This document shows positions 17,432 through 58,579 of a stretch of 64,000 nucleotides of DNA, piece after piece (the stretch's first letter is position 1; each line of letters opens with the position of its first letter). The notes under the pieces were generated by a model. It was not told the DNA's origin, ran no database searches, and saw only the letters and a program-made list of their open reading frames with translations. Both the position numbers and the translations under genes were made by a program. The stretch covers positions 10,877-74,876 of the forward strand of contig DASVWC010000017.1 of the NCBI GenBank assembly GCA_036389835.1. Direction: 5' to 3'. The DNA is from Thermoleophilaceae bacterium (GTDB taxonomy: Bacteria; Actinomycetota; Thermoleophilia; Solirubrobacterales; Thermoleophilaceae).

Positions 17432-17450
17432 CCCGAGGTAAAGGTGCCGG

Positions 17451-19836: not shown

Positions 19837-19892
19837 GCCCGTCCAGTCTATGGCGGGCTCAGACTGCGAAGTGTCGGTTAGGCTGCTCGGCC

Positions 19893-26289: not shown

Positions 26290-26382
26290 CCGCGCGCAGT
26301 CTAGGCACGGCTCGCGCCGCCGGCGGTCGGTTACGCTGCCTGCGATGCTGGGCCGGCGGGGACGAAGGAAGGCACCCGGGGA

Positions 26383-35167: not shown

Positions 35168-36160
35168 ATGAAGGACCCCGGGACACAGCCGACCAGCTCC
35201 GACGCGGCGCAGCGCGCCCGCGAGGCCGCCGTGCGGCAGCTCAGGACCGTCACGCGCACGCCGGACCCGGTCGAGGAGCCGACCCGCCCGATCCCCATCG
35301 ACCCCGCCACCAACGGGCACTCCGAGCCCGTCCCCGCCGCCGGCGACGGCGACGGGGGGCGCACGCGGATCGTCGGCCCGCTCGAGGCCGTCCTGCGCCA
35401 TCCCCTCCTCGCCCTGATCCCGCTCGTCCTGCTCGTGGCGGGCGGCGCCTATCTCGCCAGCGCCCGCACGCCCGAGTACACGGCGAAGGCGCGCGTGAAC
35501 GTCGGCCGCGCCGACATCCCCGCCTACGTCCTCCAGAACGCGAGCTACGGCAACCAGGTGGTCGCCGCCAGCTACGCGCGCAGCATCGACGCCGCGCCCG
35601 TCGTCCAGGCCGCCGCCCAGCAGACCGGGCTGCCGGTCGGCACCGCGCGCGACCGGCTGAGCGCCACCACGATCCCGGACAGCACGCTGATCCAGGTCGA
35701 GGCCACCGGCCCCTCGTCCAACGACGCGAGCGGCCTCGCGAACGCCGGCGCGCGCTCGCTGATCGCCTACCTCAAGCGGATCACCCGCAGCGACGAGGGC
35801 GCGCGAGCGCTGCGCCGCTACCGCGACGCCCAGGCGGTCCTACGGCGGCTCGAGCTTCGGCTCGACCGGCTGCGGAGGTCGAACGCCAACGCCCGCCGCG
35901 TCGCGCGCGCGCAGCTCGCGGTCGACGCCGCCGGCCTCGAGGCCTCGCAGTACGCGAACCTCTACCGCCAGGCCGAGACCGCCGAGGGATCCTCCAGCGC
36001 GCCGTTGACGCTGCTCGCCCCGGCCGCGAAGGCCGACTCCGACCGGCGCAGCGTGCTCGAGCAGACGATCGTCATCGCCCTCGCCGCCGGGCTCGTGCTC
36101 GGCGTCGGGCTCGCGCTGCTCGCCGCCAACTGGCGGACGCTGCGCGCCCTCCGGGAGTGA
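35168..36160 (+). CDS. Wzz-like polysaccharide co-polymerase / chain-length determinant (no kinase domain)
   Basis: 330 aa. One N-terminal TM (LLALIPLVLLVAGGAYLA) and one C-terminal TM flank a coiled-coil-rich periplasmic-type domain. Confidence 0.7.
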   Translation: MKDPGTQPTSSDAAQRAREAAVRQLRTVTRTPDPVEEPTRPIPIDPATNGHSEPVPAAGDGDGGRTRIVGPLEAVLRHPLLALIPLVLLVAGGAYLASARTPEYTAKARVNVGRADIPAYVLQNASYGNQVVAASYARSIDAAPVVQAAAQQTGLPVGTARDRLSATTIPDSTLIQVEATGPSSNDASGLANAGARSLIAYLKRITRSDEGARALRRYRDAQAVLRRLELRLDRLRRSNANARRVARAQLAVDAAGLEASQYANLYRQAETAEGSSSAPLTLLAPAAKADSDRRSVLEQTIVIALAAGLVLGVGLALLAANWRTLRALRE

Positions 36161-37554
36161 CCGCCCGCCAGACCCTCGCCCTGCGCCTGGCGGTCGTGCC
36201 GCTGATGGCGCTGCTCGCCTACGCGGGTGCCGAGGCGGCGGCGGCCCCCACGCCCGACGAGGGCTTCACCCGGGCGTTCGCGATCGTCGCGGGCACCGGC
36301 CTGTTCGTGGCGGCGGCGCTGGTGCGGCCGTCGTGGACGATCACGGCGGGGCTCGTGCTGAGCCTCTTCTCGAGCCACTGGGAGAAGATGGACGTCCCGC
36401 TCGACCTCGACCGGATGATGCTCGGCGTGGGCGTCCTGTCGCTGCTCTACCGCGAGTGGCGCCACCGCGACGGGCGGCTCCAGACGCGGCCGGTGGACTG
36501 GGTCCTGTTCGTGATCGCGCTCTACGCGCTCGTCTCGGCGGGGCTGGCCGGCGAGCTCGACGTGCGCAGCTCGCGCTTCGGGCTGATCGACCGCTTCGGG
36601 CTGATCCCGTTCATCCTCTTCTTCGCCGCCCCGTTCGCGTTCAGGACCGAGCGCGATCGCCGCATCCTGCTCGCGGCGATAGTCGGGATCGGCGCCTACC
36701 TGTCGGTCACCGCGGTCCTCGAGACGACCGGCCCGGAGGCCGTGATCGTCCCGCACTACATCACCGACGACAGCGTGGGCATCCACGCCGATCGCGCGCG
36801 CGGGCCGTTCCTCGACGGCGCCGCCAACGGAATCGCGCTGTTCGGGTGCGGGATCGCCGCGGTGATCGCGTTCGGGCGCTGGCGCGACAGGCGCTGGCGC
36901 GCGTTCGCGCTCGTCGTGGCCGGGCTGTGCGCGCTCGGGGTCCTGCTCGCGCTCACGCGGGTGGTCTGGCTCTCGGCGCTGATCGGAGCGCCGGTCGCGA
37001 TGGCGTGCGCGCGCGAGACCCGGCGCTTCCTCGTCCCGGCCGCGGGGGCGGCGTTCGTGGTGATCGCGGTCGCGCTGGCCGCGGTCCCGGGGCTGCGCGA
37101 GAAGGTCGACGACCGCACGAACGACAAGCAGCCCGTCTACGACCGCCGCAACTCCAACAGCGCCGCGCTGCGGATGATCGACGACCGGCCGCTGTTCGGC
37201 TTCGGCTGGGGCACGTTCGAGGAGGAGAGCAAGCCCTACTACCGGCAGGCGGAGGAGTACCCGCTGACGCTGGTGCGCGACCTCCACAACGTCTACCTCT
37301 CGAACGCCGTGGAGCTCGGGCTGGTCGGCACGCTGCTCTGGATGGCCGCGCTCGTCTACGCGATCGGGGGCGCGATCGTGCGCCGCGGCCCCCCGGAGCT
37401 GCGCTGGTGGAAGATCGGGCTGGTCGCCTACGCGGTCGGCCTGGCCGTCTCGTGGACCTCGAACCCGGCCGACTACGCGCTGCCCACGCTGCTGCTCTGG
37501 CTCTGGGCGGGCGTGGCCTGGGGCGGGCGCGAGCACACCGCTCCGGCCACCTGA
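36157..37554 (+). CDS. O-antigen ligase/polymerase family membrane protein (Wzy_C type)
   Basis: 465 aa with about 10-12 TM helices and the large-loop motif RARGPFLDGAANGIALF. Its start overlaps the wzz-like stop. Confidence 0.75.
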   Translation: MTARQTLALRLAVVPLMALLAYAGAEAAAAPTPDEGFTRAFAIVAGTGLFVAAALVRPSWTITAGLVLSLFSSHWEKMDVPLDLDRMMLGVGVLSLLYREWRHRDGRLQTRPVDWVLFVIALYALVSAGLAGELDVRSSRFGLIDRFGLIPFILFFAAPFAFRTERDRRILLAAIVGIGAYLSVTAVLETTGPEAVIVPHYITDDSVGIHADRARGPFLDGAANGIALFGCGIAAVIAFGRWRDRRWRAFALVVAGLCALGVLLALTRVVWLSALIGAPVAMACARETRRFLVPAAGAAFVVIAVALAAVPGLREKVDDRTNDKQPVYDRRNSNSAALRMIDDRPLFGFGWGTFEEESKPYYRQAEEYPLTLVRDLHNVYLSNAVELGLVGTLLWMAALVYAIGGAIVRRGPPELRWWKIGLVAYAVGLAVSWTSNPADYALPTLLLWLWAGVAWGGREHTAPAT

Positions 37555-38947: not shown

Positions 38948-39415
38948 TCAGTCGGGCCGGCGCCGCGCGAACCGGCGCAGCGCGCCGCCCGCCACGGCCA
39001 TTCCGGATCCGAGCGCGGCCGCGGCCGCCGCGACGAAGCCCGTGAACGGCAGGTTCCCGCCGGAGCCGCCTCCGGAGCCGCCTCCGGAGCCGCCCCCCGA
39101 GCCGCCGCCGGAACCGCCGCCCGACCCGCCGCCCGAACCAACGCCGCCGCCGTCGTCCGGGTCGCCGCCACCGCTGTCCACGTCCGCGATCCCCTGGCCG
39201 TCGACCGTCGGGACCGTGTCGACCGATCCCGGGCCCCCGGGGCCGGCCACGAAGCCGGGGTCGCCGCCGGAGCCGGGGCCGCCCGTGGGCGAGCTGAAGC
39301 TCAGGTCGCCCGCCCCCGCCTGCGCGAGGAACAGGTGTGCCGCACTGGTCATCTCGACTAGGTCGCCGAAGTCCGTGACCACCGGCGGCACGTAGCTACG
39401 CCGCACCCCGTCCAT
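38948..39415 (-). CDS. Lasso-RiPP-leader-containing protein with a Gly/Ser-rich spacer and a C-terminal LPXTG-type sorting signal
   Basis: 155 aa. The ATG at 39415 is preceded by an AAGGTG SD. Residues 8-24, YVPPVVTDFGDLVEMTS, match Y-x2-P-x-[LV]-x3-G-x5-T-x. The C-terminus is NLPFTG, about 20 hydrophobic residues, then RRFARRRPD. Confidence 0.75.
   Translation of the reverse strand: MDGVRRSYVPPVVTDFGDLVEMTSAAHLFLAQAGAGDLSFSSPTGGPGSGGDPGFVAGPGGPGSVDTVPTVDGQGIADVDSGGGDPDDGGGVGSGGGSGGGSGGGSGGGSGGGSGGGSGGNLPFTGFVAAAAAALGSGMAVAGGALRRFARRRPD
39056..39154 (-). repeat. In-frame 12-nt tandem repeat encoding (GGGS)n
   Basis: ggagccgcc-type units are repeated about 7 times and translate to GSGGGSGGGSGGGSGGGSGGGSGGGSGG, directly before LPFTG. 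Confidence 0.85.
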
Positions 39416-39483
39416 GTCACCTTAGACTCTACGCCAGAGCAGGCGAAATCGCGCCGAGTCCTCAGTAAGCTGCCGCCCGCGCG

Positions 39484-41822: not shown

Positions 41823-41876
41823 GCGGCACGCTTGCAACCGGTGGCGCGCGCCCATGCGCTGTGCTCCAATAACGCG

Positions 41877-42578
41877 GTGACAGGCACCCTGACGCCGGAG
41901 AGCGACCTCGTCCGCGCGGCGACGGCCCCGCCGCTGGCGCTCGACGGGATCGTCAAGCGCTGGCCCGGCGCCCCGCCCGTGCTCGAGGGCGTGAGCCTCA
42001 GGCTCGAGCCGGGCCAGGCCGTCGCGATCTGCGGGCGCAACGGGGCCGGCAAGACCACGCTGCTGCGGATCGCGGCCGGGCTCTTCGGCCCCGACCAGGG
42101 CAGCGTCCGCCTCGACGGCCTCGACCCCGAGCACGACCGGACCGAGTTCCAGCGCCGGCTCGGCTTCCTGTCCGCCGGCAACAGCGGCCTCTACGCCCGG
42201 CTCAAGCCCGAGCATCACCTCGAGCTGTGGTCGCGGCTGGCGCTCGTGCCGAAGCGCCGGCGCGAGGCCGCGATCGCCGGCGCGGTCCGCGCCTTCGAGC
42301 TCGACCCGCTCTGCGGGAAGCGCGTCGACCGCCTCTCGATGGGCCAGCGGCAGCGGCTCCGCCTCGCGCTCGCGTTCCTGCACGAGCCGACCGTCGTCCT
42401 GCTGGACGAGCCGGGCACGAGCCTCGACGACGAGGGCATCGCGATGATCGGGGCCGCGCTCGAGCGCCTCAAGTCGCGCGGCGGCGCCGCCGTCGTTTGC
42501 CTGCCCTCCGGCTGGGAGGCCGTCCCCGCGGTCGACGCGGGCTTCGTCCTCGCGAACGGCCGCCTGGAGCCGGCGTGA
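41877..42578 (+). CDS. ABC transporter ATP-binding protein
   Basis: The Walker A is GRNGAGKTT, the signature is LSMGQRQRL and the Walker B is VVLLDEP. The start is uncertain: GTG 41877 or TTG 41832. Confidence 0.85.
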   Translation: MTGTLTPESDLVRAATAPPLALDGIVKRWPGAPPVLEGVSLRLEPGQAVAICGRNGAGKTTLLRIAAGLFGPDQGSVRLDGLDPEHDRTEFQRRLGFLSAGNSGLYARLKPEHHLELWSRLALVPKRRREAAIAGAVRAFELDPLCGKRVDRLSMGQRQRLRLALAFLHEPTVVLLDEPGTSLDDEGIAMIGAALERLKSRGGAAVVCLPSGWEAVPAVDAGFVLANGRLEPA

Positions 42579-43387
42579 GGTCGGCCGCGGCACTCGCCGG
42601 CGCGGCCGGCGCCATCTGCAAGCGCGACCTGCTCGTCCTGCTCAGCTACCGCACCCGCACGTTCACGATCGTCTTCGGGACGGCGTTCAGCCTCACGCTC
42701 TTCTACTACGTCTCCCGTCTCGTGTCCTCGCCGCGGATCGGCTCGCCGGACGACTACTACGCGTTCGTCGTGGTCGGGCTCGTGATCTTCGGCCTCGTCA
42801 GCTCCACGCTCTCCGCGCCGGTCACGACCCTGCGCGCGGAGCTCCAGGCCGGGACGTTCGAGCGGATGGTGCTCTCGCCCTTCGGCCCCGTCCGGTCGAT
42901 CGCCTCGCTGCTGCTGTTCCCGCTGATCCAGGCGGTCGTGCTGGGGGTCCTGTCGCTCGCCTTCGCCGCGCTCGCGTTCGGGCTCGACGTGCGCTGGTCC
43001 ACGGCCGCGCTGGTCGTGCCGGTCGGGGCCCTCGCTGCGGGCGCGTTCGCGCCGTTCGGGCTGCTGATGACCGCGGCCGCCGTGCTCTTCAAGCAGACCA
43101 GCGCCGGCGCCACCTTCATCATCACCGGGATCACGCTGCTGGCGGGCGTGTACTTCCCGGTCGAGCTGCTGCCGGGCTGGATCCGCTGGGCGTCCGAGGT
43201 GCAGCCGTTCACGCCGGCCGTCGACGTGCTGCGCAACGTGCTCGTCGGCACGCCGCTGCGCAACCCCGCCTGGGAGGACCTCGTCAAGCTCGCGGGCTTC
43301 GCGCTGGCGCTGCTGCCGGTGTCCGCGCTGACGCTGCGCGCGGCCGTCGCTCGCAGCCGCCGGACCGGCACGATCATCGAGTACTGA
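42575..43387 (+). CDS. ABC-2 type transporter permease
   Basis: The GTG at 42575 overlaps the ATPase stop (GTGA). The 270-aa protein has 6 TM helices and the typical ABC-2 region FERMVLSPFGP. Confidence 0.85.
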   Translation: MRSAAALAGAAGAICKRDLLVLLSYRTRTFTIVFGTAFSLTLFYYVSRLVSSPRIGSPDDYYAFVVVGLVIFGLVSSTLSAPVTTLRAELQAGTFERMVLSPFGPVRSIASLLLFPLIQAVVLGVLSLAFAALAFGLDVRWSTAALVVPVGALAAGAFAPFGLLMTAAAVLFKQTSAGATFIITGITLLAGVYFPVELLPGWIRWASEVQPFTPAVDVLRNVLVGTPLRNPAWEDLVKLAGFALALLPVSALTLRAAVARSRRTGTIIEY

Positions 43388-43695
43388 TGGCCGGCTCTCC
43401 TACACCGGGGGACTCGCTCCTGAACGCCCGCGTGCGCGTGCCCGAGCACGTCGTCTACCGCGACTTCGGCGACGAGACGGTGATCCTCAACCTCGACAGC
43501 GGCATGTACCACGGCCTCAACCACACGGCCGCCGCGATGCTCTCCACGCTGGGCGAGAGCGAGTCGGTGGCCGCGGCGATCGACCGGCTCGTCGGCGAGC
43601 TCGGCCAGCCGCGGGAGGTGATCCAGCCCGACGTGCTGGACCTCTGCCACGCACTCGCCGACCGCGGGCTGATCGAGCACGATGGCGGCGACTGA
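43387..43695 (+). CDS. PqqD-family RiPP recognition element (lasso B1)
   Basis: 102 aa with VVYRDFGDETVILNLDSGMYHGLNHTAAAML...LCHALADRGLI. The ATG overlaps the permease stop (TGATG). Confidence 0.85.
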   Translation: MAGSPTPGDSLLNARVRVPEHVVYRDFGDETVILNLDSGMYHGLNHTAAAMLSTLGESESVAAAIDRLVGELGQPREVIQPDVLDLCHALADRGLIEHDGGD

Positions 43696-44662
43696 GCCCG
43701 AGGCCGGCCGGCCCGAGCGCCGCCGCGCGTACGCCTTCGGGCTCGACCTCGACCTCTCGTTCCCGGCGCCCGGCCTGCCGGAGGCGAGCGGCGCGACCGG
43801 CGGGCGCCCCGCGCGCGCCGACCTGGTGGAGCCCGGTGCGATCGACCGCGACTGGCCCGCCGGAGAGGCCGAGGAGGTGCTCGCCGAGCGCTTCGACGAC
43901 GGCGCGGTGGCGCGCACGATCCACGCGCACCCCGAGGCTGGCTACCGGCTCTACGCCCGCCACTTCGGCCTCGCACGCCTGTCGCCGGACGGCGCGCGCA
44001 TCGCCTGCTCGCCGCCCGACGTCGAGCCCTGGAGCTGGCAGCGCTTCCTCGTGGGCCGGATCCTGCCGTGGGCGGCGGTGCTGCGCGGGCTCGAGGCGTT
44101 CCACGCGAGCGCGGTCGAGACCGGCGGCCGCGCCGTGGCGTTCGTGGGCGCGACCGGCGCGGGCAAGACCTCGCTCGCGATCCAGCTCGTGGGCCGCGGC
44201 GCGAGCTTCCTGACCGACGACGTGCTCGCACTCGAGCGCCGCGGCGGCGTGCTCTGGGCGCACCCCGGGGCGGGCATCGCGAGCGTGCGGCCGGCCGAGC
44301 GCGAGACGATCTCCGGCCCGATCTGGGAGCGCCTCGGCTCGGTGCTCGGCGAGAGCGGCAAGACGTACCTGGAGGTTCCGCGCCGCGACGGCCCGGTGCC
44401 GCTCGCGGCGGTGTACTACCTGCGCCCGGGCGGCGACGCCGCGATCGAGCCGTTCGAGCGCCCGGACCCGCGCCTGCTGCTCGCGAGCACCTTCGTGCTC
44501 GGCGTCCGGACCCCGGAGCGGCTCGCCAACCAGCTCGACGTCTGCTCCGCGCTCGCCCGGACCGTCCCCGTGTTCTGGCTCAGGGTGGACGCCGGCGAGG
44601 GCTCGGCGCGGCTCGCCGCCGCCGTCGACGACCACGTGCGGGCGCTGGAGCCGGTCGCGTGA
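43682..44662 (+). CDS. HPr-kinase-related serine kinase (lasso-precursor kinase type)
   Basis: 326 aa with HASAVETGGRAVAFVGATGAGKTSLAIQLVGRGASFLTDDV, which is an HprK C-terminal-domain P-loop. It overlaps the PqqD gene by 14 nt. Confidence 0.8.
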   Translation: MAATEPEAGRPERRRAYAFGLDLDLSFPAPGLPEASGATGGRPARADLVEPGAIDRDWPAGEAEEVLAERFDDGAVARTIHAHPEAGYRLYARHFGLARLSPDGARIACSPPDVEPWSWQRFLVGRILPWAAVLRGLEAFHASAVETGGRAVAFVGATGAGKTSLAIQLVGRGASFLTDDVLALERRGGVLWAHPGAGIASVRPAERETISGPIWERLGSVLGESGKTYLEVPRRDGPVPLAAVYYLRPGGDAAIEPFERPDPRLLLASTFVLGVRTPERLANQLDVCSALARTVPVFWLRVDAGEGSARLAAAVDDHVRALEPVA

Positions 44663-45057
44663 GGCCGACGCCCGCGAACGTCGCGCTCGCCGCCGAGGTG
44701 GTGGCCTCGTACGTCCGCGCGCGGCGGAAGCTGCGGCACGCGGACCTGCGCGTCGCGCTCGCGGACCTGCGCGCGGTGGACTCGCCGCGGCTGCGGCCGC
44801 CCGCCGATCCGATCGACGGCGGGCGCCGGCTCGGCCGCGCGGTCGCGCGCACGCTCGCGCTGCTTCCCGGCGACACCCGCTGCCTGACCCAGTCGCTCGT
44901 GCTCACGCGACTGCTCGCGGCCCGCGGCATGGAGTCGCGGCTCGTGATCGGCGTCCGGCCCGGCGAGCGCTTCGCCGCGCACGCCTGGGTCGAGCACGAC
45001 GGCGTCCCGCTCCTGCCGCCCGGCGCGGACCACTTCGAGGAGCTCGTGACGCTCTGA
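44659..45057 (+). CDS. Lasso peptide leader peptidase B2 (transglutaminase-like Cys protease)
   Basis: The GTG at 44659 overlaps the kinase stop (GTGA). The 132-aa protein has Cys (CLTQSLVL), His (AHAWVE) and Asp (HDG) in the canonical order. Confidence 0.85.
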   Translation: MRPTPANVALAAEVVASYVRARRKLRHADLRVALADLRAVDSPRLRPPADPIDGGRRLGRAVARTLALLPGDTRCLTQSLVLTRLLAARGMESRLVIGVRPGERFAAHAWVEHDGVPLLPPGADHFEELVTL

Positions 45058-45110
45058 CCGCCGCGTTCGCAGGGCGCTACGGACCGGAGGGTCCCGACGC
45101 GGAGGCCCTG

Positions 45111-46832
45111 GTGCGGTCGCTGCGCCGCGACGGTGCGGCCGGCGCGGCGCGGGCCGGGCCGCTGGCGATCGCCTCGACGAGCGGCGTGCACGCGCCGGCA
45201 GGCGGCCCGCTCTGCGTAGTGGACGGCCGTCTCGACGCCGGCCCGCTGGCCCGCGCCGCCGGGCTCGACCCCGCCCTCCCCGCCGCGGAGCTGGTCGCGG
45301 CGGCCTACGCGCGCCTCGGGCCCGCGGCGCTCGACCGCCTCGAGGGGGAGTTCGCGCTGGCCGTCTGGGACGAGCGCGCCGGCCGCGGCGCGCTCGCCCG
45401 CGACCGCCTCGGCGCGCGCCCGGTCTTCCTCGCCGAGCACGCCGGCGCGCTGCTGTTCGCCTCCGAGGTGCGCAACCTGCTCGCGCTGCTGCCGTCGCGC
45501 CCGGCGCCCGACGAGACGGCGATGGCCCACTGGCTGGCGCGCGCGCCGCTCCCGCGCGGACGCACGCTCTACAGCGGCATCCGGCCGCTCCCCGGCGGGC
45601 ACGCGCTCGAGCTGGCCGGCGGCCGCTGGCGCGAGCGGCGCGTGTGGCGCCCGCGCCACGCCGCCGCGCGGCGGCTCGGCGAGCGCGAGGCCGCCGAAGC
45701 CGTGCGCGCCTGCCTCGGCGCCGCCGTCGAGCGCAGCCTGCGCGGCGCCGAGCGCCCGGCGATCCTCCTGAGCGGCGGGCTCGACTCGGCCGCGGTCGCC
45801 GCGGCCGCGAGCGCCGCCGGCACGCGCCCGGCCGCGTACTCGGCGCTGTTCCCCGAGCACCCGGAGGTGGACGAGTCGCAGCGGATCCGGTCGGTGCGCG
45901 AGCGGCTCGGCCTCGACGGCGTCGAGGCCGACCTGGGCGGCGGCAGCGCGATCGAGCGCGCTCGCGAGTTCACGCGCGAGTGGGAGCTGCCGTCGGTCTC
46001 CCCGAACCGCTTCGTCTGGGCCCCGCTCCTGGCCCGGGCGCGCGACGACGGCGTCGACGTCGTGCTCGACGGGGCGGGCGGCGACGAGCTGTTCGGCTGC
46101 GCGCGCTACCTGGTCGCCGACGAGCTGCGCCGCGGCGCCCCGCTCGCGGCCGTGCGGGTCGCCCGCCGGCTGCCGGGCATGGGCTCGAGCCCGCCGCCGC
46201 GCTGGATCGCGCGCGCGCTGGCGACCTACGGGCTGCGCGCCGCGCTCCCCCACCGGCTGCACGAGCGGCTGCGCGCCGCGCGCGGCCGCTCGGGCGGACC
46301 GGACTGGCTCGCGGCCGGGGTGACCCACGACCGCTGGAGCTGGAAGCGCGAGCCCGGCCCGCGCTGGTGGGCGCAGCTCGTGCACCTGCTGACGAGCGAC
46401 GAGCTGGGCGTGGCCGACCAGCTCAGGCGCGAGGCGGCGATCCACGGGCTCGAGCTGAGGCACCCGCTGCGCGACCCGGCCCTGATCGACCTCGTGCTCG
46501 AGCTGCCGCCCGAGCTCGGGTTCGACCCGGACCTCGACCGGCCGCTGCTGCGCCGCGCGCTGGCGGGCGAGCTGCCCGACGCCGTCCTGCGCGAGGTCCG
46601 CAAGCCCGCCTTCAACCCGCTGCTGGAGGCCGCGCTGGCGGGCCCTGACCGCCGGGGACTGGCGGCCCTGCTGGCCGCTCCGCCCCCGGAGCTGACCGCC
46701 CTCGTGAGGCCCGGATCCGGCGCCTTCGAGCCATTCGAGGCCGGAAACCGGGCGCCGGGGCGCGCCCTCGAGCTGTGGCGGCTGGTCACGCTCGCGGTCT
46801 GGCTGGACCATCAGGGGGACGGTTCTGCTTGA
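45111..46832 (+). CDS. Lasso peptide macrolactam synthetase C (asparagine-synthetase-like, no Cys nucleophile)
   Basis: The PP-loop is ILLSGGLDSAAV, with DGAGGDELFG also present. The first canonical start is the GTG at 45111. The frame stays open back to a CTG at 45054 that overlaps the B2 stop, and the extra residues TAAFAG mimic the CGIAG N-terminus. Confidence 0.85.
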   Translation: MRSLRRDGAAGAARAGPLAIASTSGVHAPAGGPLCVVDGRLDAGPLARAAGLDPALPAAELVAAAYARLGPAALDRLEGEFALAVWDERAGRGALARDRLGARPVFLAEHAGALLFASEVRNLLALLPSRPAPDETAMAHWLARAPLPRGRTLYSGIRPLPGGHALELAGGRWRERRVWRPRHAAARRLGEREAAEAVRACLGAAVERSLRGAERPAILLSGGLDSAAVAAAASAAGTRPAAYSALFPEHPEVDESQRIRSVRERLGLDGVEADLGGGSAIERAREFTREWELPSVSPNRFVWAPLLARARDDGVDVVLDGAGGDELFGCARYLVADELRRGAPLAAVRVARRLPGMGSSPPPRWIARALATYGLRAALPHRLHERLRAARGRSGGPDWLAAGVTHDRWSWKREPGPRWWAQLVHLLTSDELGVADQLRREAAIHGLELRHPLRDPALIDLVLELPPELGFDPDLDRPLLRRALAGELPDAVLREVRKPAFNPLLEAALAGPDRRGLAALLAAPPPELTALVRPGSGAFEPFEAGNRAPGRALELWRLVTLAVWLDHQGDGSA

Positions 46833-46857
46833 AGAGGGCGTTTCAGATGCGTATATT
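46829..46857 (+). promoter_or_regulatory. Sigma-70-like promoter in front of the precursor gene
   Basis: TTGAAG (46829-46834), a 17-nt spacer, then TATATT (46852-46857). It sits in a locally AT-richer patch of an otherwise very GC-rich region, about 45 nt upstream of the precursor ATG. Confidence 0.45.
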
Positions 46858-46901
46858 CCGGCGATCTACACGGGGGGCTGCTTTGTGAAGGAGGAGGTGT
46901 A

Positions 46902-47036
46902 ATGGACTACGAGACCCCAATCGTTCTTGACTACGGGACGCTTACGGACCTGACCGCGGGTCAGACCGACGGCAACTTCCTGGACGCGGACTTCCCGTCC
47001 GGAACCCCGAAGGACGAGCTCACCTTCTCCAACTAG
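46902..47036 (+). CDS. Lasso peptide precursor (44 aa; not in the ORF track)
   Basis: The translation is MDYETPIVLDYGTLTDLTA|GQTDGNFLDADFPSGTPKDELTFSN. The strong SD GAAGGAGGAGGTG ends 2 nt before the ATG. The leader motif is Y3-P6-V8-G12-T18 with Thr at the penultimate leader position. The core has Gly1 and Asp9. Confidence 0.8.
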   Translation: MDYETPIVLDYGTLTDLTAGQTDGNFLDADFPSGTPKDELTFSN

Positions 47037-47045: not shown

Positions 47046-47071
47046 GGTGCGGCCCGTGAGGCGGCCGCACC
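47046..47071 (+). promoter_or_regulatory. 9-bp perfect hairpin immediately after the precursor stop
   Basis: ggtgcggcc (47046-47054), an 8-nt loop, then ggccgcacc (47063-47071). No U-tract follows. It sequesters the GTG at 47047, the candidate start of the next gene. Confidence 0.5.
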
Positions 47072-48966
47072 ATGGCCGATCGACGCTCGACGCCGCCGTC
47101 GAGCCCGCGGTCGCCCTGGCCGGCTGCGCCGAGCGGCGCGCGGAGCTGCGCGGCGCGGTGCGCCACGCCCTGTCGCGCGCGGACCTCACGCGCCTGGCCG
47201 CCCGGCTCGCGAGCCGCCGCCTGCTGCCGCTGATCGGAACGCGGGCGCTCGAGGCGGCCGGCGACGTCTGCCCGCCCGAGTTCGAGGCGACGGTCACGGG
47301 CGCGCTCGGCGTCGCGAGGGCCCGCGCGCTCGCGGTCGAGGCCGCCACCCGTGACGTGACGGCGACCCTCGCCGGGCACGGCATCGCGGCACTGCCGCTC
47401 AAGGGGCCGCTGCTCGCGGAGGCGCTCTACGGCGACACCGGCCTGCGCGAGACCGCCGACGTGGACCTGCTCGTCCCGCGCGAGCGGCTCGCCGGCGCCG
47501 CGGCGCTGCTGCGCCAGGACGGCTACGCGGCTCCCGCCGACCCGCTGCGCGCCGACGGCCTGCCCGACCTTCACCTCGCGCTCGACCATCCCCGGCGGCC
47601 GTCGGTCGAGCTGCACTGGCGCGTCCACTTCTACGAGGACGAGTTCGCGCGCGACATGCTCGAGCGGGCCGAGCCGGGGCCCGACGGGCTGCTGCGCGCG
47701 CGCCCGGCCGACCTGCTCGCGTCGCTGCTGCTGTTCTACGCGCGCGACGGCTTCTACGGGCTGCGGCTGGCGGCCGACATAGGCGCGTGGTGGGACCGCT
47801 ACGGCCGCGCCGGCGACCGGCCGCTCGAGGAGCACGCGCGCCGCTACCCGCGCCTCGCCCCGGCGCTCACCGCGGCGGCGGTCGCCGCCGAGCGCGTGAC
47901 GGGCGCCCCGGCGGCCGGCTGGCTCGGCGGCGCCGCGGCGCACGGCCGCCGGACCGCCATGGCGGCCGGGCTGGCCAACCCCACCTACAGCGGCGAGCGC
48001 GACCAGCTCGCGGCCAACATCTCGCTCGCGGACGCGCTGCTCGCCCCGCCTGGCACGGTCGCCGAGTTCGCCCGGCGCGAGCTGGTGCCGCGCTCGGGCC
48101 CGGCGGCCCCGCACGCCGCCAAGATGCTCGCCCGCTACGGCGCGGCGGCGTGGCGCGTGCGCGGCGGCCGCGAGTGGGCGGCGGGGCCGGCGGGCGGCGG
48201 GCCCGCCGTCGAGCTGCTCGGGCTGCGGCTCGACCGCGTGAGCGAGGCCGAGGCGATCGATCACGTGATCGGCGCCCTGGACGCCGGGCGCGGCGGCTGG
48301 CTGCTCGCGATGAACCTCGACACGCTGCGCCAGTACGCGCGCTCGGAGGAGCTGCCGGCGCTGTTCGAGCGGGCGGACCTGATCGTGGCCGACGGCATGC
48401 CGCTGATCTGGGCGAGCCGCCTGGCGGGGACGCCGCTGCCCGCGCGGGTCGCGGGGTCGGACCTGATCTGGTCGCTCACGGCGGAGGCGGCGCGGAACGG
48501 GCGGTCGGTGTTCCTGCTCGGCGGGGCGCCGGGCGTCTGCGAGCGCGCCGCCGACGCCCTGCGCGCGCGCTCTCCCGGCCTGGCCGTGGCCGGCACCCAC
48601 TCGCCGCCGTACGGCTTCGAGAGCGACGCCGCCGAGCTCGACGCGATCCGCGCGCGCCTGCGCGAGGCGCGCCCCGACGTCGTCTACGTCGGGCTCGGCT
48701 TCCCCAAGCAGGAGCGCCTGATCGCGCAGCTCAGAGACGAGCTGCCGCGCTCCTGGTTCGTGGGCGTGGGCATCTCGTTCAGCTTCGTGACCGGCGACGT
48801 GCCGCGGGCACCCGCCTGGCTCCAGCGGATCGGCCTCGAGTGGGTCCACCGGCTGACGAAGGAGCCGCGGCGGCTGGCGCGCCGCTACCTCGTCGACGAC
48901 CTGCCGTTCGCCGCCCGGCTGGCCGCCCACAGCCTCGCGCGGCGGGCGCGCGGCGGTCGCGGCTAG
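47047..48966 (+). CDS. Fusion protein: NTP_transf_5-type nucleotidyltransferase (N-terminal) plus WecG/TagA/CpsF family GT26 glycosyltransferase (C-terminal)
   Basis: 639 aa. The N-terminal half has LPLKGPLLAEALYGDTGLRETADVDLLV...VELHWRV. The C-terminal half, from about nt 48220, has LLGLRLDRVS...ADGMPLIWASRL...VYVGLGFPKQE...GVGISFSF. The start is uncertain. Confidence 0.8.
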   Translation: MRPVRRPHHGRSTLDAAVEPAVALAGCAERRAELRGAVRHALSRADLTRLAARLASRRLLPLIGTRALEAAGDVCPPEFEATVTGALGVARARALAVEAATRDVTATLAGHGIAALPLKGPLLAEALYGDTGLRETADVDLLVPRERLAGAAALLRQDGYAAPADPLRADGLPDLHLALDHPRRPSVELHWRVHFYEDEFARDMLERAEPGPDGLLRARPADLLASLLLFYARDGFYGLRLAADIGAWWDRYGRAGDRPLEEHARRYPRLAPALTAAAVAAERVTGAPAAGWLGGAAAHGRRTAMAAGLANPTYSGERDQLAANISLADALLAPPGTVAEFARRELVPRSGPAAPHAAKMLARYGAAAWRVRGGREWAAGPAGGGPAVELLGLRLDRVSEAEAIDHVIGALDAGRGGWLLAMNLDTLRQYARSEELPALFERADLIVADGMPLIWASRLAGTPLPARVAGSDLIWSLTAEAARNGRSVFLLGGAPGVCERAADALRARSPGLAVAGTHSPPYGFESDAAELDAIRARLREARPDVVYVGLGFPKQERLIAQLRDELPRSWFVGVGISFSFVTGDVPRAPAWLQRIGLEWVHRLTKEPRRLARRYLVDDLPFAARLAAHSLARRARGGRG

Positions 48967-50360
48967 CGGTCGCGGTCCGGGTCGTCCACGCAGCCCCTGC
49001 CGCGCGGCTGCGCCAGGGCCTGGAGCTTTCGCCACGGGAAGTTCGCGAGCACACCCTGGCTGTCGGGCGACCTGCCCTCGAAGATCTCCACGTACGGGTC
49101 GTAGCCGAGCGGCGTCGGGTCCTCGGCGGCGAACCCGATCTCGGTCGAGGCGTCGGTCACGACCAGGCCGTATCGCTGTATGGCGCGCGCGATCGTGAGC
49201 GCGTAGCGCGACAGCGGGTGGCGCGGGTCGCTCGCGTAGGCGGCGAGGTCGAAGCGCGCCGGGAAGCGGAAGCGGGCGCCCGCCGGGATCGACTGCGGCG
49301 CGCGGCTCGAGCGCTCCGGGTCGGTCCGCTGCGCGGGCCAGCACCAGCCGTCGCGGCCGCCCCTGCCGATCACGACGAGGCCGATCGCGTGCTCCACCGC
49401 GCCGCGGCGCAGCTCCTCGATCCGCTGGAGCCCCGACATCAGCGCGATCGAGGTGGCCGACGCGCCGTACTGCGGGCCCGGCGGATCCACGAAGTGGCCC
49501 TCGTTCTGCGAGACGTGCGGCATCCGGCCGCCGTAGCGGGCGCGCCAGGTGCCGAACAGCGGGTCCTTCGACAGCCCCCAGAACTCCCAGAGCGTGTCCG
49601 TCGCGGGCTGCCAGAGGATCAGGTTCCCGTCGGTGCCCGCGGCCGGTCGCGCGTCGGCGGGCAGCGGGACCGCGTCCCACTGCCGCTGGAGCGCGGGCGC
49701 GCCCTCGGGCGCCGCGACCCGTACCGCCGGCTGGTCCGGACCGACGGTGTAGATCGGCGAGCTGTACTGCGTGGTGCCGATCAGCGCGCCGCGCGGGCGG
49801 CTGCGCACCTGCGAGCGGATCTCCGCGACCATCGCCGCCGAGTTGCCCGCCAGCGGAGCGTTCTTCTTCAGCCGCTTGTTGCGCCAGCCGCCGGGCGAGA
49901 ACGGCTCCGCGACGAGCGTCATCGTGTCGATCCAGGCGCTGCGCTGGCAGGTGAGGCTCGAACCGGACCCCTCGACGATCCCCACGGACACCGCGTGCGG
50001 CCCCGCCGGCACCGACAGGCGCGCGCCGAGCTCGCCGTAGCCCGCTCCCGCGAGGCCCACGAAGCGCTCCACGCCGTCGACCTTGATCGACACGGTGGGC
50101 AGCCCGAAGCAGTCGTTCCCCCGAACGCGCGCGAAGACGTGGACCGACGTGCGCGTGGTGGTCATCACGCCCTCGGCGGCGCTCCCGGCGGCGATGCGCA
50201 GCGCCCGCCCGCTCGAGGCATTCGCATCGGGCTCGACCGCGCCGGGGCCGACCGGGGTGAGCAGCTCGCCCTCGATCGTCACGTCGGCCGCGCCCGCGGG
50301 CGCGGCGAGAAACGCGAAGGCGGCCGCGGCCGTGGCGAGCACGCGGCGCACGTCGGGCAT
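48963..50360 (-). CDS. Secreted protein of unknown function (signal peptide plus beta-sandwich-like N-domain)
   Basis: 465 aa from the ATG at 50360. MPDVRRVLATAAAAFAFLAAPAGAADV looks like a Sec signal with an AXA cleavage site. I recognise no family for the remainder. Confidence 0.65.
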   Translation of the reverse strand: MPDVRRVLATAAAAFAFLAAPAGAADVTIEGELLTPVGPGAVEPDANASSGRALRIAAGSAAEGVMTTTRTSVHVFARVRGNDCFGLPTVSIKVDGVERFVGLAGAGYGELGARLSVPAGPHAVSVGIVEGSGSSLTCQRSAWIDTMTLVAEPFSPGGWRNKRLKKNAPLAGNSAAMVAEIRSQVRSRPRGALIGTTQYSSPIYTVGPDQPAVRVAAPEGAPALQRQWDAVPLPADARPAAGTDGNLILWQPATDTLWEFWGLSKDPLFGTWRARYGGRMPHVSQNEGHFVDPPGPQYGASATSIALMSGLQRIEELRRGAVEHAIGLVVIGRGGRDGWCWPAQRTDPERSSRAPQSIPAGARFRFPARFDLAAYASDPRHPLSRYALTIARAIQRYGLVVTDASTEIGFAAEDPTPLGYDPYVEIFEGRSPDSQGVLANFPWRKLQALAQPRGRGCVDDPDRDR

Positions 50361-50454
50361 CGACTGCACGGTGAAATGGTCGCACTTCCACGCCGGTCGG
50401 CGCGCGGTCGCGCTGCTCCGGCACCCGCGGCCGAACCGGTAGCGTCCGGCAACC

Positions 50455-51969
50455 GTGGCTCGGCGAGCGTCGTATTCCGAAGGCGTGGCGTTCGCGGTGC
50501 TGAGCTTCGCCTCGATCGCGGTCGTCGGGCTGGTCAGCAGCATCTTCGTGGCCCGGGCCTACGGCATCGAGCCGATCGGCGAGCTCGCGATCGCGCTGGC
50601 GCCGTCGCTCGCGCTCGCGACGCTGTCCCAGCTCCGCGAGCAGGCCGCCCTCGTGCGCGAGCTGACCCTGCTCGCGCCGCGCGCGCCCCGGGTGACCGGC
50701 CTGTTCGCCGCGGTCATGGCGTTCTCGTTCGGGCTCACGCTGCTGGTCGCGATCCCCGTGACGGCCGCGACCTGGTTCGTCCTGTCCGGCCCGGTCGGCC
50801 GCGACGACCTGTTCGTCCCGGCGCTCGCGCTGATCGGCATCTACACGCTCGTCGAGAACACCTGCTGGAACCTCGACGTCGTGTTCCAGGCCTTCCGCGC
50901 CGGGCGGCCGCTGTTCTGGGTGCGGCTCGACTACGGCGTGACCTACGTGGCGTACGCGCTCGCCATCAACTTCACGTTCGGCGACGACGTCTGGGGGCTC
51001 GTCGCGGCCGCGGGGCTGTCGATCGCGACGTCGCTGGTGCACCGGCTCGTGCTCGTCCGCCACTTCATGCGCTTCCGGGTCCCGCGCGCGGAGATCCGGG
51101 CCGGCTTCCGGACGCTGCCGGCCCTGGTCCGGTTCGGCGCGAAGGTCGCGCCGGGGCAGATCGCCGACGGCGTCTCGCGCCAGGCGAGCGTCTGGGTCCT
51201 GTCGATCACGAGCTCGGTCGCCGCCGTGGGCGCCTACAACCGGGCCTGGATGCTCGCCACGCGCTTTCTCGAGCTCGGTCACCGGGTGGTCGAGATGCTG
51301 TTCCCGACCCTGGTGGAGCGGCGCGCGAACGGCGACTCCGAGGGCTTCGACCGGGCGTCGATCGACACGGTGCGCTACTGCGTGGCCGGCCTGCTGCTGC
51401 CAGCGGCCGCGGGCGGTGGCGCGGCCGACGGGCTCATGGACCTGTTCGGGGACGGGTTCGACCGCGCCGCGGACGCGCTGGCGCTGCTGCTGCTCGCGCC
51501 CGGCCTCGCCGCCGTCGTCTCGATCCTCACGAGCATCCTGTGGACCGACGACCGGCTCTGGCTGAGCACGATCATCACCTCGGTCCGCGCCGCGCTCACG
51601 GTCGGGCTGACGATCGTGCTCGCGATCGAGTACGGCATCACGGGGGCGGCCGTCGCGATCGTCGCGGCGTACCTGGTCGAGTCGGTCTGGTGCTTCGCCG
51701 TGATGCCGCGGCACTGGTCCACCCCGGTGCGGACGCTGTGGCCCTACCGCGGCATGGCCGCGCTCGCGGCCGGATACGCGGCCGGATTCGCCGCGGCGCG
51801 CAGCGTCGACGCGGCTCTCTACGGGGAGGTCGGCACCGCGTGCGCGGTCGCGGCCGGGGCGGTCGTGTACCTGGCGATCGCGGTCGGCGGCGGGCTCCAG
51901 GAGCGCGATCGCGAGCGGCTGGCGGCGATCCGGGGAAGACGCGCCCAGGCACTGCCGACCGAGGGTTAG
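50455..51969 (+). CDS. MOP-superfamily flippase (second Wzx-type protein)
   Basis: 504 aa with about 12-14 TM helices and the polysaccharide-biosynthesis-protein pattern (FGAKVAPGQIADGVS). Confidence 0.75.
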   Translation: MARRASYSEGVAFAVLSFASIAVVGLVSSIFVARAYGIEPIGELAIALAPSLALATLSQLREQAALVRELTLLAPRAPRVTGLFAAVMAFSFGLTLLVAIPVTAATWFVLSGPVGRDDLFVPALALIGIYTLVENTCWNLDVVFQAFRAGRPLFWVRLDYGVTYVAYALAINFTFGDDVWGLVAAAGLSIATSLVHRLVLVRHFMRFRVPRAEIRAGFRTLPALVRFGAKVAPGQIADGVSRQASVWVLSITSSVAAVGAYNRAWMLATRFLELGHRVVEMLFPTLVERRANGDSEGFDRASIDTVRYCVAGLLLPAAAGGGAADGLMDLFGDGFDRAADALALLLLAPGLAAVVSILTSILWTDDRLWLSTIITSVRAALTVGLTIVLAIEYGITGAAVAIVAAYLVESVWCFAVMPRHWSTPVRTLWPYRGMAALAAGYAAGFAAARSVDAALYGEVGTACAVAAGAVVYLAIAVGGGLQERDRERLAAIRGRRAQALPTEG

Positions 51970-52016
51970 CGCTTTATGCTGGGCCTGTGGCGCCGCGGGC
52001 ACGCAGCCGACCCGAC

Positions 52017-53276
52017 GTGAGCAAGCTCCTGCGCAAGGGCAAGGTCGACGCCCTGCGCGAGGCCCTGCACTACCGCGACCTGGGGGCGGCCGGCAACGGC
52101 GCGGGGCACGACGCCGGCGCGCCCGTGCGCGCCGAGGCGCTCAGGGCGCTGGTGTCGCTCGGCGGCCCGACCGTCCCGGGCGACCTGAGCGCCGCGCTCG
52201 AGGACCCCGACCCGTCGGTGCGGATCGCGGCGATCGACGGCATCGCGGCCATGGGCGCCCCCGTGGCCGGCCAGGCCGAGCAGCTCGTGCGCGCCGCCGT
52301 GGCGCGCGAGGAGGGCGCCGGCGACGTCTCGGCCCGAGCGCTCGACCTGCTGGTGGACTGGGCGGCCCAGGGGGTCGCGGAGATGTTCGTGGAGGCCCTG
52401 CTCGACCCCGGCGCGCCCGAGCCCGACGAGGGCCACGCGGCCAGCCTCGAGCTGCTGTTCGTCACCGACACCCGCGGGGATGGGGCGCGCACGGCGGTCG
52501 CCGACCTGCTCATCGCGCGGCTGCACCAGGCCCCTGACGAGCGCTCGGAGCGGGCGGTCGAGCGCGTGCTGGGCTGGCTCGGGCCGTCGGCGCTCGAGAG
52601 CGTGCTGGCCGAGCTCGAGAGCGGCACTTCCACCCCGGCGCTGCTGCGCGCGGCCGGCTCGCTGGGCGACGCGCGTGCGGTCGCGCCGGTCGTCCAGGGA
52701 CTCGAGAACCCGGATCCGGACGTGCGGGTGGCGGCGGCCACGGCGGCTCGGACGCTCAACCACACCCGCGCCGTCCCGGCGCTGCTCACGGCCACGCAGG
52801 ACGACGAGCAGGCGGTGCGCGACGCCGCCTCGGCGGCGCTCGACCGGATGGGGACGGCGGCGGTGATCGCCGGCCTGGCGACCGTGGTGGACACGCGCCT
52901 GCAGGCGGCGCTGCCGGCGGTCCTCGAGGGCGACGGGGCCGAGCAGCTCGGCTCGCGCGGCGGCGCGGAGCAGCTCGCCGAGGGCCGGGCGGAGCCGGAT
53001 GTGGGGCCGGCGCCGGGCGCGGAGCCGGCGCCGGGCGCGGAGCCGGAGCCGGGCGCGGAGCCGGCGCCGGGCGCGGGGCCGGCGCCGGGCGCGGGGCCGC
53101 AGCCGGCGCAGCAGCCGCAGCCGGCAGCGCCCCAGCCCGTGCGGTCCGGACCCGCCGAGCCGATCCAGCCGACGGTGCCCTCGGCCCTCCCCGCCCAGCC
53201 CGGGCCGGCCCTCCCCGGCCAGCCCCGGCCGCGCCGCGGCGGCCTGCTCGACCGGCTGCTCGGCCGCGACTACTAG
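52017..53276 (+). CDS. HEAT-repeat (PBS-lyase type) protein with a Pro/Ala-rich repetitive tail
   Basis: A GTG at 52017 starts the protein. It contains repeated L.DPDP.VR.AA motifs (EDPDPSVRIAAIDGI, ENPDPDVRVAAATA, DDEQAVRDAASAAL). Only the last about 419 aa of ORF 47787..53276 are real. Confidence 0.7.
   Translation: MSKLLRKGKVDALREALHYRDLGAAGNGAGHDAGAPVRAEALRALVSLGGPTVPGDLSAALEDPDPSVRIAAIDGIAAMGAPVAGQAEQLVRAAVAREEGAGDVSARALDLLVDWAAQGVAEMFVEALLDPGAPEPDEGHAASLELLFVTDTRGDGARTAVADLLIARLHQAPDERSERAVERVLGWLGPSALESVLAELESGTSTPALLRAAGSLGDARAVAPVVQGLENPDPDVRVAAATAARTLNHTRAVPALLTATQDDEQAVRDAASAALDRMGTAAVIAGLATVVDTRLQAALPAVLEGDGAEQLGSRGGAEQLAEGRAEPDVGPAPGAEPAPGAEPEPGAEPAPGAGPAPGAGPQPAQQPQPAAPQPVRSGPAEPIQPTVPSALPAQPGPALPGQPRPRRGGLLDRLLGRDY
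53004..53099 (+). repeat. In-frame 18-nt tandem repeat encoding (EPAPGA)-like units
   Basis: The unit gagccggcgccgggcgcg occurs about 5 times with small variants. It translates to GPAPGAEPAPGAEPEPGAEPAPGAGPAPGAGP. Confidence 0.8.
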
Positions 53277-58566: not shown

Positions 58567-58579
58567 GCGGCGGAGCCTA

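Follow-up and report, generated by a model that had tools for sequence, protein, structure and literature searches.

Linear polyphosphorylated peptides (LPPs) of Bacillota are produced from non-lasso precursors of 35-200 aa that carry the leader YxxPxVLxHQxIxFETxxS; an HprK-like kinase polyphosphorylates these precursors at a single Ser, and the cluster also encodes an NTP transferase (Popov et al., Nat Commun 2026, PMC13381572). These clusters lie in capsule loci, often beside paeninodin-type lasso clusters, and LPPs are stated to be restricted to Bacillota, their role being stated as unknown in 2026; the paper makes no mention of LPXTG, sortase or any transmembrane feature (PMC13381572). The HprK-like kinases of lasso clusters phosphorylate the C-terminal Ser of linear precursors, and a nucleotidyltransferase adds a hexose to the phosphate (PMC8498205). 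The present work concerns a gene in a 64,000-nucleotide stretch of DNA from a Thermoleophilaceae bacterium (contig DASVWC010000017.1, positions 10,877 to 74,876; the whole stretch is called the window, and coordinates follow its numbering unless another locus is named). Based on the open reading frame (ORF), GC content by codon position and family membership, the gene (38948..39415, minus strand) encodes a protein in which a lasso-type leader is followed by a Ser motif, an acidic Gly-rich spacer, the pentapeptide LPFTG, a predicted transmembrane segment and an Arg-rich tail. On balance, we favour the view that this protein is a linear substrate which is modified by a kinase and anchored at the cell surface.

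The 155-aa ORF, taken from the ORF list of the window, starts with ATG and has the layout MDGVRRS-YVPPVVTDFGDLVEMTS-AAHLFLAQAGAGDLSFSSP-(Gly/Pro/Asp-rich, ending GVGS(GGGS)6GG)-NLPFTG-FVAAAAAALGSGMAVAGGAL-RRFARRRPD. On sequence reading, a Shine-Dalgarno-like AAGGTG (39418..39423, minus strand) lies 2 nt 5' of the ATG, a 68-bp divergent gap separates the gene from a GT2 gene at 39484, and 30 nt separate it from the next minus-strand gene (37556-38917), all as described in the initial annotation of this DNA. The starts of the homologues, 3-8 residues ahead of the conserved Tyr of the leader, agree with the start chosen here. The GC contents of the three codon positions are 0.77/0.68/0.91 for the full ORF and 0.70/0.40/0.87 for its first 30 codons, while the plus-strand ORFs overlapping 38948-39415 show an atypical GC1<GC2; the window as a whole has 74.8% GC and many long chance ORFs. 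A scan for promoters and terminators around the gene found none. In an AlphaFold2 model built with 64 homologues, the protein has two helices only (residues 19-32 and 126-151), with a predicted local distance difference test (pLDDT) score of 72-88 at the ends and 52-60 in the middle. The ORF is a real and conserved coding gene, and the doubt raised initially, that it might be an artefact of a GC-rich frame, is answered by its conservation in relatives (187 cluster representatives at E<=1e-10).

A word-indexed search with the window protein returned 16 homologues, two of which are annotated, as hypothetical proteins, in metagenome-assembled Thermoleophilaceae genomes. An exhaustive HMMER search with the 17-sequence alignment then gave 842 cluster representatives at E<=1e-3, including the 187 mentioned above, nearly all of them 110-200 aa long and aligned end to end, with motifs conserved at both ends and a variable middle. 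Leader and anchor motif are both present in 196 of the 218 sequences fetched. All named members come from Thermoleophilaceae genomes assembled from metagenomes, and gene callers called the gene in several independent assemblies. No Pfam or NCBIfam model covers the protein, and the family is previously undescribed and unnamed. Scans of genome and metagenome contigs for the anchor pattern matched 38 and 194 stretches, of which 1 and 2, respectively, passed a tblastn check, a low rate probably due to the low-complexity bulk of the protein. The combination of a leader, a spacer and an LPXTG-like signal without a lasso core, first proposed from the single gene, is thus borne out and conserved across a large family.

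The leader of the window protein (residues 1-24; 39344..39415, minus strand) was delimited by comparing the N-terminal profile of the family with true lasso precursors. Its family consensus is Y-x2-P-x-[VI]-x-D-[YH]-G-x-L-x3-T-x and, assuming cleavage after S24, residues Y8, P11, V13, G17 and T23 fall at -17, -14, -12, -8 and -2, which are the canonical lasso positions; they thereby reproduce the lasso leader motif YxxPx[L/V]x3Gx5Tx, Thr at -2 included, with exact spacing. In the family alignment the respective columns hold Y in 186/192, P in 194/194, G in 194/194 and T in 192/194 sequences, and 188 of 196 members have the Tyr three residues ahead of the invariant Pro. A leader profile made from the first 27 alignment columns only was searched against 2082 six-frame ORFs from the window and five loci. 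Beyond the family it retrieved exactly three bona fide lasso precursors, namely those of the window (46902-47036, E 6e-8), of L005 (1e-7) and of L006 (2e-9), with the next match at E>1, and a repeat on more loci gave the same picture. Judged by these sequence statistics, residues 1-24 of the window protein show homology to the leaders of the lasso precursors whose genes lie a few kb away, so that the lasso-type motif with identical spacing noted in the initial annotation withstands a family-wide search. The NCBIfam lasso leader model NF033521 likewise matches 41 of 60 family N-termini (best E 1.2e-5), and the 44-aa lasso precursor of the window scores 21.6 bits, above the 19-bit cutoff. As a separate observation, the lasso precursor of L012 (15169-15306, minus strand; MNNDYETPEIKELGSLSDLTLLGTPKYVAETDGFSFQGVDIGNPT) has a divergent leader, with ELG in place of DYG, and is unmatched by the leader profile at E<1; in that genome the two leaders have drifted apart.

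What follows the leader does not look like a lasso core. In the would-be core AAHLFLAQAGAGD, positions 7-9, where the ring-forming Asp/Glu of a lasso peptide is expected, are A7, Q8 and A9, as had been noticed initially. The first acidic residue after the leader lies at a variable distance across the family (about 11-17 residues), and the Ser motif lies 14-25 residues after the leader Thr, distances which leave no fixed ring size. A 13-residue macrolactam onto D37 was considered and rejected, since the ring size would run from 11 to 17 across the family. As read from its sequence, the family protein is therefore not a lasso core.

Within the post-leader segment conserved in the alignments (residues 25-43, AAHLFLAQAGAGDLSFSSP; 39287..39343, minus strand), Ser41 (codon 39293..39295, minus strand), the second Ser of DLSFS, is a candidate phospho-acceptor on the strength of its column conservation. 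It is the most conserved post-leader column, being Ser in 170/194 sequences, preceded by Phe or Val in 140/194 and followed two residues later by Pro in 123/189. The co-located lasso precursors end in ELTFSN (window), ELTFSG, DLTFSN, DLTFSG, QLTFS and QGFSV, and the pattern [DE]L[ST]FS has only 7 matches in 391,310 residues of six-frame ORFs, all 7 of them in anchored proteins or lasso precursors, which upholds the earlier proposal of a motif common to both. In the lasso precursor of the window the conserved Ser is penultimate, unlike that of characterised kinase substrates, where it is C-terminal; the L016 precursor alone ends ...LTFS.

The stalk and the C-terminal anchor are equally distinctive. 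The acidic Gly/Pro-rich spacer (residues 44-120; 39056..39286, minus strand) contains no Lys or Arg and includes a near-perfect 12-nt tandem repeat (39057-39133, 6.4 copies, detected with Tandem Repeats Finder) which encodes (GGGS)n; the seven GGGS units counted initially are in fact six perfect GGGS and one GVGS. This composition is a family trait, as the middle part holds on average 34% Gly and 6.9 Asp/Glu vs. 1.4 Lys/Arg. The distance from leader to anchor ranges from 29 to 152 residues among homologues, and stalk length could vary through repeat slippage. The spacer leads into NLPFTG (residues 121-126), in which LPFTG (residues 122-126; 39038..39052, minus strand) is invariant at each of its five positions in the 17-sequence alignment and present in 171 of 196 members, a few variants having LPFSG or LAFTG instead. 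A hydrophobic segment of exactly 20 uncharged residues (127-146) and the tail RRFARRRPD (147-155) complete the protein (together 38951..39037, minus strand; composition and AlphaFold2), much as in the family, where a median of 20 uncharged residues after the motif is followed by a mean of 4.8 Lys/Arg. G136 and G143 inside the hydrophobic segment are also invariant. The segment is modelled as helix 126-151 with a pLDDT of about 82, and the sole predicted hydrophobic segment of the window protein is 124-142. Neither the window protein nor the family has a hydrophobic N-terminus or an N-terminal Sec signal peptide. The tripartite architecture of a sortase signal (LPXTG, about 20 hydrophobic residues, basic tail) is thus present in window protein and family alike, and these parts of the initial description, the missing Sec signal included, hold.

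According to the positive-inside rule, an Arg-rich tail stays inside. An acidic stalk nearly devoid of Lys/Arg joined to such a tail places the stalk outside, and a tail-anchored topology with the N-terminus inside was rejected, as the Arg-rich tail would then need to cross the membrane. The same module of Gly-rich sequence, LPFTG, transmembrane segment and Arg pair also occurs behind ordinary Sec signal peptides, in the small metagenome proteins P0212, P0213 and P0216, and P0213 is encoded in a polysaccharide locus, with a Wzz/BY-kinase-type gene on one side and GT2, GT4 and Wzx genes on the other. A profile search with the C-terminal module gave 5 proteins, including the Sec-signal version P0216, a small yield probably caused by poly-Gly words filling the candidate list. 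The Sec-signal versions and the charges of stalk and tail support an extracytoplasmic sorting role of the anchor, and Gly-rich LPFTG proteins may belong to the general equipment of the polysaccharide loci of these bacteria.

We compared eleven distinct loci, mostly from metagenomes (the window, identical to L001/L002, together with L004-L008 and L012-L016), counting partner genes within 10 kb of the family gene. An HprK-like kinase is encoded in 10/11 loci, an NTP_transf_5 protein and a PqqD protein in 8/11 each, the pair of B2 protease and cyclase in 7/11 and a HEAT-repeat protein in 6/11. In L007, L013 and L016 the kinase gene follows immediately downstream of that for the anchored protein, and L013 and L016 have a second kinase-like gene inside the lasso operon (the two genes lie at 5878-6618 and 10591-11496 in L013, and at 5187-6155 and 10652-11536 in L016). 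This suggests a dedicated kinase per substrate in these two loci, vs. one shared kinase in the window; the window kinase compares at 43% (160 bits) with the L013 kinase on the side of the anchored-protein gene and at 37% (132 bits) with that of the L013 lasso operon, a gap too small to assign it. In L007 and L008 a profile search covering 10 kb detected neither PqqD nor B2, nor a cyclase, a second leader-bearing ORF or an ABC-2 transporter, and the kinase, NTP_transf_5, WecG, HEAT and Wzy_C genes are kept. The family is therefore independent of lasso formation and has no obligate tie to the B2 protease and Asn-synthase-type cyclase, and the window locus resembles the lasso-less module of L007 and L008 into which a lasso module (ABC-2, PqqD, B2, cyclase, precursor) has been inserted. 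Other recurring neighbours are WecG, a separate gene in L007, L008 and L012, and HEAT genes, which lie adjacent to or near the family gene in L005, L007, L008, L012 and L016 (adjacent in all of these except L005). Homologues of the window Wzy_C protein are encoded in L004, L007, L008, L012 and L015, and those of a secreted protein of the window (48963-50543) in L005, L006, where the gene directly follows the family gene, and L007. Cumulatively, these comparisons show a tight linkage of the family to the kinase and NTP_transf_5, independent of the cyclase. The co-occurrence with PqqD, kinase and NTP_transf_5 genes, which the initial annotation proposed to examine for constancy, proves to be frequent without being invariable.

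These neighbourhoods fit the earlier suggestion of a leader-guided phosphorylation or glycosylation of a surface protein, and from them the following sequence of events can be proposed. In the cytoplasm the leader would recruit the HPr-kinase-like kinase of the cluster, via the PqqD-type protein where one is present. In the window these would be the proposed modifying enzyme at 43682..44662 (plus strand; Walker A GATGAGKTS, weak matches to Pfam Hpr_kinase_C and NCBIfam HprK_rel_B/A) and the PqqD-type protein at 43387..43695 (plus strand; Pfam PqqD), the lasso B1 protein or RiPP (ribosomally made, post-translationally modified peptide) recognition element (RRE), which matches the solved lasso RRE TbiB1 (5v1u) at E 2.7e-7. 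The kinase would phosphorylate the conserved Ser41 of DLSFS, a target indicated by the presence of the same F-S motif at the end of the co-encoded lasso precursors and by the C-terminal Ser being the documented target of this kinase class. NTP_transf_5, here fused to a WecB/TagA/CpsF-type (TagA/WecG-type) glycosyltransferase (47047..48966, plus strand; Pfam, NCBIfam) and proposed to be the phospho-Ser glycosylation module, might add one or more sugars to the phosphate, as for pseudomycoidin, and the B2 protease, where present, may remove the leader after S24. Among the loci this fusion occurs in the window only; in the others WecG either has a gene of its own or is missing. Charge and topology rules suggest that the acidic stalk would then cross the membrane, held by the C-terminal hydrophobic segment with the Arg-rich tail inside. 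In the last and least certain step, LPFTG would be cut by a sortase encoded elsewhere and the stalk linked to peptidoglycan; alternatively, the protein may simply remain membrane-anchored, and, granted that the protein is a kinase-modified, surface-anchored substrate, we hold the sortase step to be an even call. The envelope would thereby display a flexible stalk, about 100 residues long and phospho-glycosylated at its tip, which would form part of the polysaccharide system around it.

Several observations weigh against this sequence of events, the functional steps of which all rest on gene neighbourhood and analogy. As regards the leader, the window anchored protein scores only 14.5-14.7 bits on NF033521, below the 19-bit cutoff, so that scoring with this model recovers most of the family N-termini and not that of the window protein. 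A shared RRE should make the leaders of anchored protein and lasso precursor co-vary within a locus, and no such co-variation was found, identities within loci being no higher than between them; moreover, two loci are without any RRE, which leaves the reading of the leader there unexplained. As regards the acceptor, the subfamily in L007, L013 and L016, where the kinase is adjacent, has AAVS-P and not DLSFS, and the candidate Ser is internal, whereas documented lasso kinases act on a C-terminal Ser. Having no signal peptide, a protein of this family must cross the membrane in an unusual way, the more so with a bulky glycan attached. As regards the anchor, neither the genes scanned in the 64-kb window nor any of the locus annotations and flanks revealed a sortase domain; a TLxTC-like sortase motif expression run over all six-frame ORFs gave nothing credible, its sole match in a real gene being the TylF methyltransferase. 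The curated anchor models TIGR01167 and Pfam Gram_pos_anchor have no match at E<=10 anywhere in the window protein, and TIGR01167 matches 2 of 40 family C-termini, that of the window not among them. For the LPXTG-type wall sorting proposed in the initial annotation, this means that the conserved tripartite architecture stands, and that neither the hidden Markov model (HMM) of LPXTG anchors nor a sortase gene in the window or loci backs it. Finally, the L014 member P0204 (3863-4243), which has both leader and LPFTG, has no kinase in the 10 kb downstream or the 3.8 kb of contig upstream, nor NTP_transf_5 or PqqD in the 14 kb seen, and its context is unrelated. Some 1 kb from the P0204 gene there is a gene for a rhomboid protease, accompanied by one for a peptidase S11; this may be coincidental, or else P0204 could be an orphan that is served in trans.

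That no sortase was found in the window or in any locus could also mean that the leader-guided chemistry is as proposed and LPFTG is no sortase site, the protein being a single-pass membrane protein whose LPFTG serves as a conserved juxtamembrane contact for a partner such as the Wzy_C or the HEAT protein. That the LPXTG HMM barely recognises the family, that an invariant Phe at X is unusual for generic sortase substrates and that the invariant G136 and G143 suggest specific helix packing all fit such a contact. Nevertheless, motif, 20-residue hydrophobic stretch and basic tail are the exact architecture of a sortase signal, other small proteins carry the same module after ordinary Sec signal peptides, and the family includes LAFTG variants. 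LPXTG signals and the LAXTG signals of actinobacteria are known to differ in having Pro or Ala, respectively, at motif position 2. We regard a purely membrane-held protein as unlikely. It is improbable, in turn, that the sugar is attached outside the cell, by a Wzy_C-family enzyme acting as an O-oligosaccharyltransferase that moves the lipid-carried Wzx/Wzy polysaccharide onto a stalk Ser, with the leader relevant for delivery or timing only. The Wzy_C family does include protein O-oligosaccharyltransferases; most loci place the gene among those for Wzy_C, Wzx and numerous glycosyltransferases, and a Sec-signal Gly-rich LPFTG protein, which could not meet cytoplasmic kinases once exported, is likewise encoded in a polysaccharide locus. 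Such a mechanism, however, leaves unexplained the conserved F-S motif in common with the lasso precursors, the kinase directly after the gene in three loci and the retention of a cytoplasmic-type leader in 188 of 196 members.

The initial annotation had also offered two further roles, that of a decoy or regulator in competition for the RRE and that of an export signal, played by the leader, for the ABC-2 transporter. In the window, one PqqD protein and one ABC-2 transporter are indeed shared with a lasso precursor of very similar leader, yet L007 and L008, where PqqD, B2, cyclase, short precursor and ABC-2 transporter are all missing within 10 kb, speak against both roles, and a decoy would have no need of a Ser motif, a stalk and an anchor; we consider this pair of roles highly improbable. 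An unusual lasso or other macrocyclic precursor with a long C-terminal follower, removed later, would account for the lasso-type leader with Thr at -2 and for the B2 protease and cyclase nearby in 7/11 loci. It is scarcely plausible, since core positions 7-9 hold no Asp/Glu, the first acidic residue follows at a varying distance of about 11-17 residues and the family is present in L007 and L008 without any cyclase. A chance ORF, finally, is what a window of 74.8% GC full of long spurious ORFs might lead one to suspect, and it can practically be dismissed in view of a GC3 of 0.91 with normal GC1>GC2, the full-length alignment of the 187 representatives and the independent gene calls.

Returning to the favoured reading of a kinase-modified, surface-anchored substrate, a more specific function can be imagined, which we put forward as a speculation and think quite unlikely to prove correct. 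The phospho-Ser at the tip of the stalk, possibly diphosphorylated, might be a protein primer for polysaccharide assembly that replaces the lipid, the finished polymer being covalently attached to the wall via the sortase-anchored, RiPP-like stalk. TagA/WecG-type transferases normally act on lipid-PP-GlcNAc. A Ser-P(P)-sugar would mimic undecaprenyl-PP-sugar, and this mimicry would explain why a TagA/WecG-type transferase is fused to, or encoded beside, the NTP transferase. If true, the co-encoded phosphorylated lasso peptide would be a soluble counterpart with the same glycan, and tailored lasso peptides and LPPs would gain a function in envelope and biofilm construction.

Further genes of the window were identified as follows. 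The lasso module (44659..47036, plus strand; NCBIfam) consists of the B2 protease (44659-45057), the Asn-synthase-type cyclase (45111-46832) and the 44-aa precursor (46902-47036), whose leader and C-terminal ELTFS are in common with the anchored protein; the scores of its models are 73 bits for NF033537 and 21.6 bits for NF033521. An ABC ATPase and an ABC-2 permease (41832..43387, plus strand; Pfam) accompany the lasso module and are not universal partners of the family. A HEAT-repeat protein with an uncertain start codon (51966..53276, plus strand) was recognised through its tblastn similarity to the HEAT protein of L007 (41% identity over 300 aa, E 4e-36), and has a Pro/Ala/Glu-rich repeat tail (PAPGAEPAPGAEPEPGAEP...). 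The secreted protein (48963..50543, minus strand) probably starts at Met62 and has about 465 aa after its signal peptide; it has homologues in the loci named above and no Pfam or PDB match. A Wzy_C membrane protein of the O-antigen ligase/polymerase family is encoded at 36157..37554 (plus strand; Pfam, 67.5 bits). The 453-aa membrane protein encoded next to the family gene (37556-38917, minus strand) had been labelled GT-C, a label which finds no support: the protein has no Pfam hit, no similarity to the PMT_2 proteins of the window and no homologue in five related loci by tblastn, and its single-sequence AlphaFold2 model (pLDDT 46) is too poor for a fold search.

Nearly the whole 64-kb window is one envelope-glycan island (895-28839 and 56947-59755). 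It includes UbiA and FAD/ALO oxidase genes (895-3241), a second Asn synthase (3201-4994), a Bac_transf priming transferase (5408-7111), two PMT_2-type enzymes (11353-12765 and 56947-58653), two Wzx flippases (15932-17518 and 50455-51969), two sulfatases (18415-20801) and YfhO (26305-28839), in addition to a TylF methyltransferase, an acyltransferase_3 and about ten GT2/GT4 genes. All scanned genes of the window belong to this island or have unrelated functions, none being a sortase or signal peptidase.

Leaders of the RiPP type are regarded as tags for small, diffusible natural products, and the protein that carries a lasso-type leader here is one made to remain at the cell surface. The occurrence of the family in loci without lasso-forming enzymes that do hold the kinase and sugar enzymes suggests a protein-modifying envelope role for these tailoring enzymes, and phosphorylation and sugar decoration of the family protein, if true, would tie peptide-tailoring chemistry to the building of the sugar coat. 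For phosphorylated lasso peptides, whose role was likewise given as unknown in 2026, and for LPPs this offers a testable hypothesis, namely a phospho-glycan at the end of a wall-anchored stalk in a polysaccharide locus. It also implies that lasso genome-mining tools may misread part of such clusters. The LPFTG module, found behind Sec signal peptides as well and in one such case in a polysaccharide locus, may be a general signal.

Considering the similarity of the C-terminus to that of known surface proteins, the family has the pentapeptide, the 20-residue hydrophobic segment, the basic tail and the low-complexity stalk before the motif in common with sortase substrates (LPXTG/LAXTG), and differs from them in having no Sec signal peptide, an invariant Phe at X, a poor TIGR01167 score and no sortase gene seen nearby. 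PEP-CTERM proteins, the partners of exosortase, resemble the family in their small size, low complexity and C-terminal succession of motif, transmembrane segment and Arg cluster, and in being genetically tied to exopolysaccharide loci; NCBIfam moreover has HprK-related kinase and PqqD-related models, which the kinase and PqqD of the window match weakly. PEP-CTERM proteins provide an analogy only, and not a group to which the family belongs, as its motif and type of cell envelope differ and no exosortase gene is present. With phosphorylated and phosphoglycosylated lasso peptides (paeninodin, pseudomycoidin) the family has the leader type, RRE, HprK-like kinase and NTP_transf_5 in common; the 44-aa precursor of the window is itself of the phosphorylated-lasso kind and has the leader and F-S motif of the anchored protein. 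The latter, unlike these peptides, has no ring-forming acidic residue and no need of cyclase or B2, is 3-4 times longer, carries its Ser internally and has an anchor.

A full-text literature search found nothing relevant that joins a lasso or RiPP leader with LPXTG or sortase. The initial remark that no such case had been characterised stands insofar as the LPP paper describes none with an anchor, and needs qualification insofar as LPPs are themselves non-lasso substrates with a YxxP leader and a kinase (PMC13381572). With LPPs, the family has in common a non-lasso precursor with a lasso-like YxxPx[V/L] leader, a Tyr-to-Thr spacing of 15 residues, an HprK-like kinase and NTP transferase in the cluster (10/11 and 8/11 loci here) and a frequent location beside a phosphorylated-lasso cluster inside polysaccharide loci. 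The differences are equally clear. A SipW-like signal peptidase gene defines LPP clusters, whereas no Peptidase_S24/S26-type Pfam hit was obtained among the scanned window genes or in the annotation of the 10 other loci. The transporter is MsbA-like in LPPs and of the ABC-2 type or absent in the family, and two discriminating RREs contrast with one or none; the Y/W discrimination of Bacillota leaders is inapplicable here, since both leader types use Tyr. The extended leader is VLxHQxIxFETxxS in LPPs vs. DYGxLxxLTA in the family, and the phospho-Ser lies 3 residues after the Thr in LPPs, whereas the candidate Ser of the family lies about 18 after it, residue 3 being mostly Phe, Val, Leu or Ala and not the Ser of the LPP consensus. 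The LPFTG C-terminal anchor belongs to the family only, and the phylum is Actinomycetota rather than Bacillota. Keeping these differences in mind, we conclude that the LPPs of Bacillota are the closest known system, that the family described here is LPP-like in its working without itself belonging to the LPPs, and that it would extend LPP-like chemistry from Bacillota to Actinomycetota.

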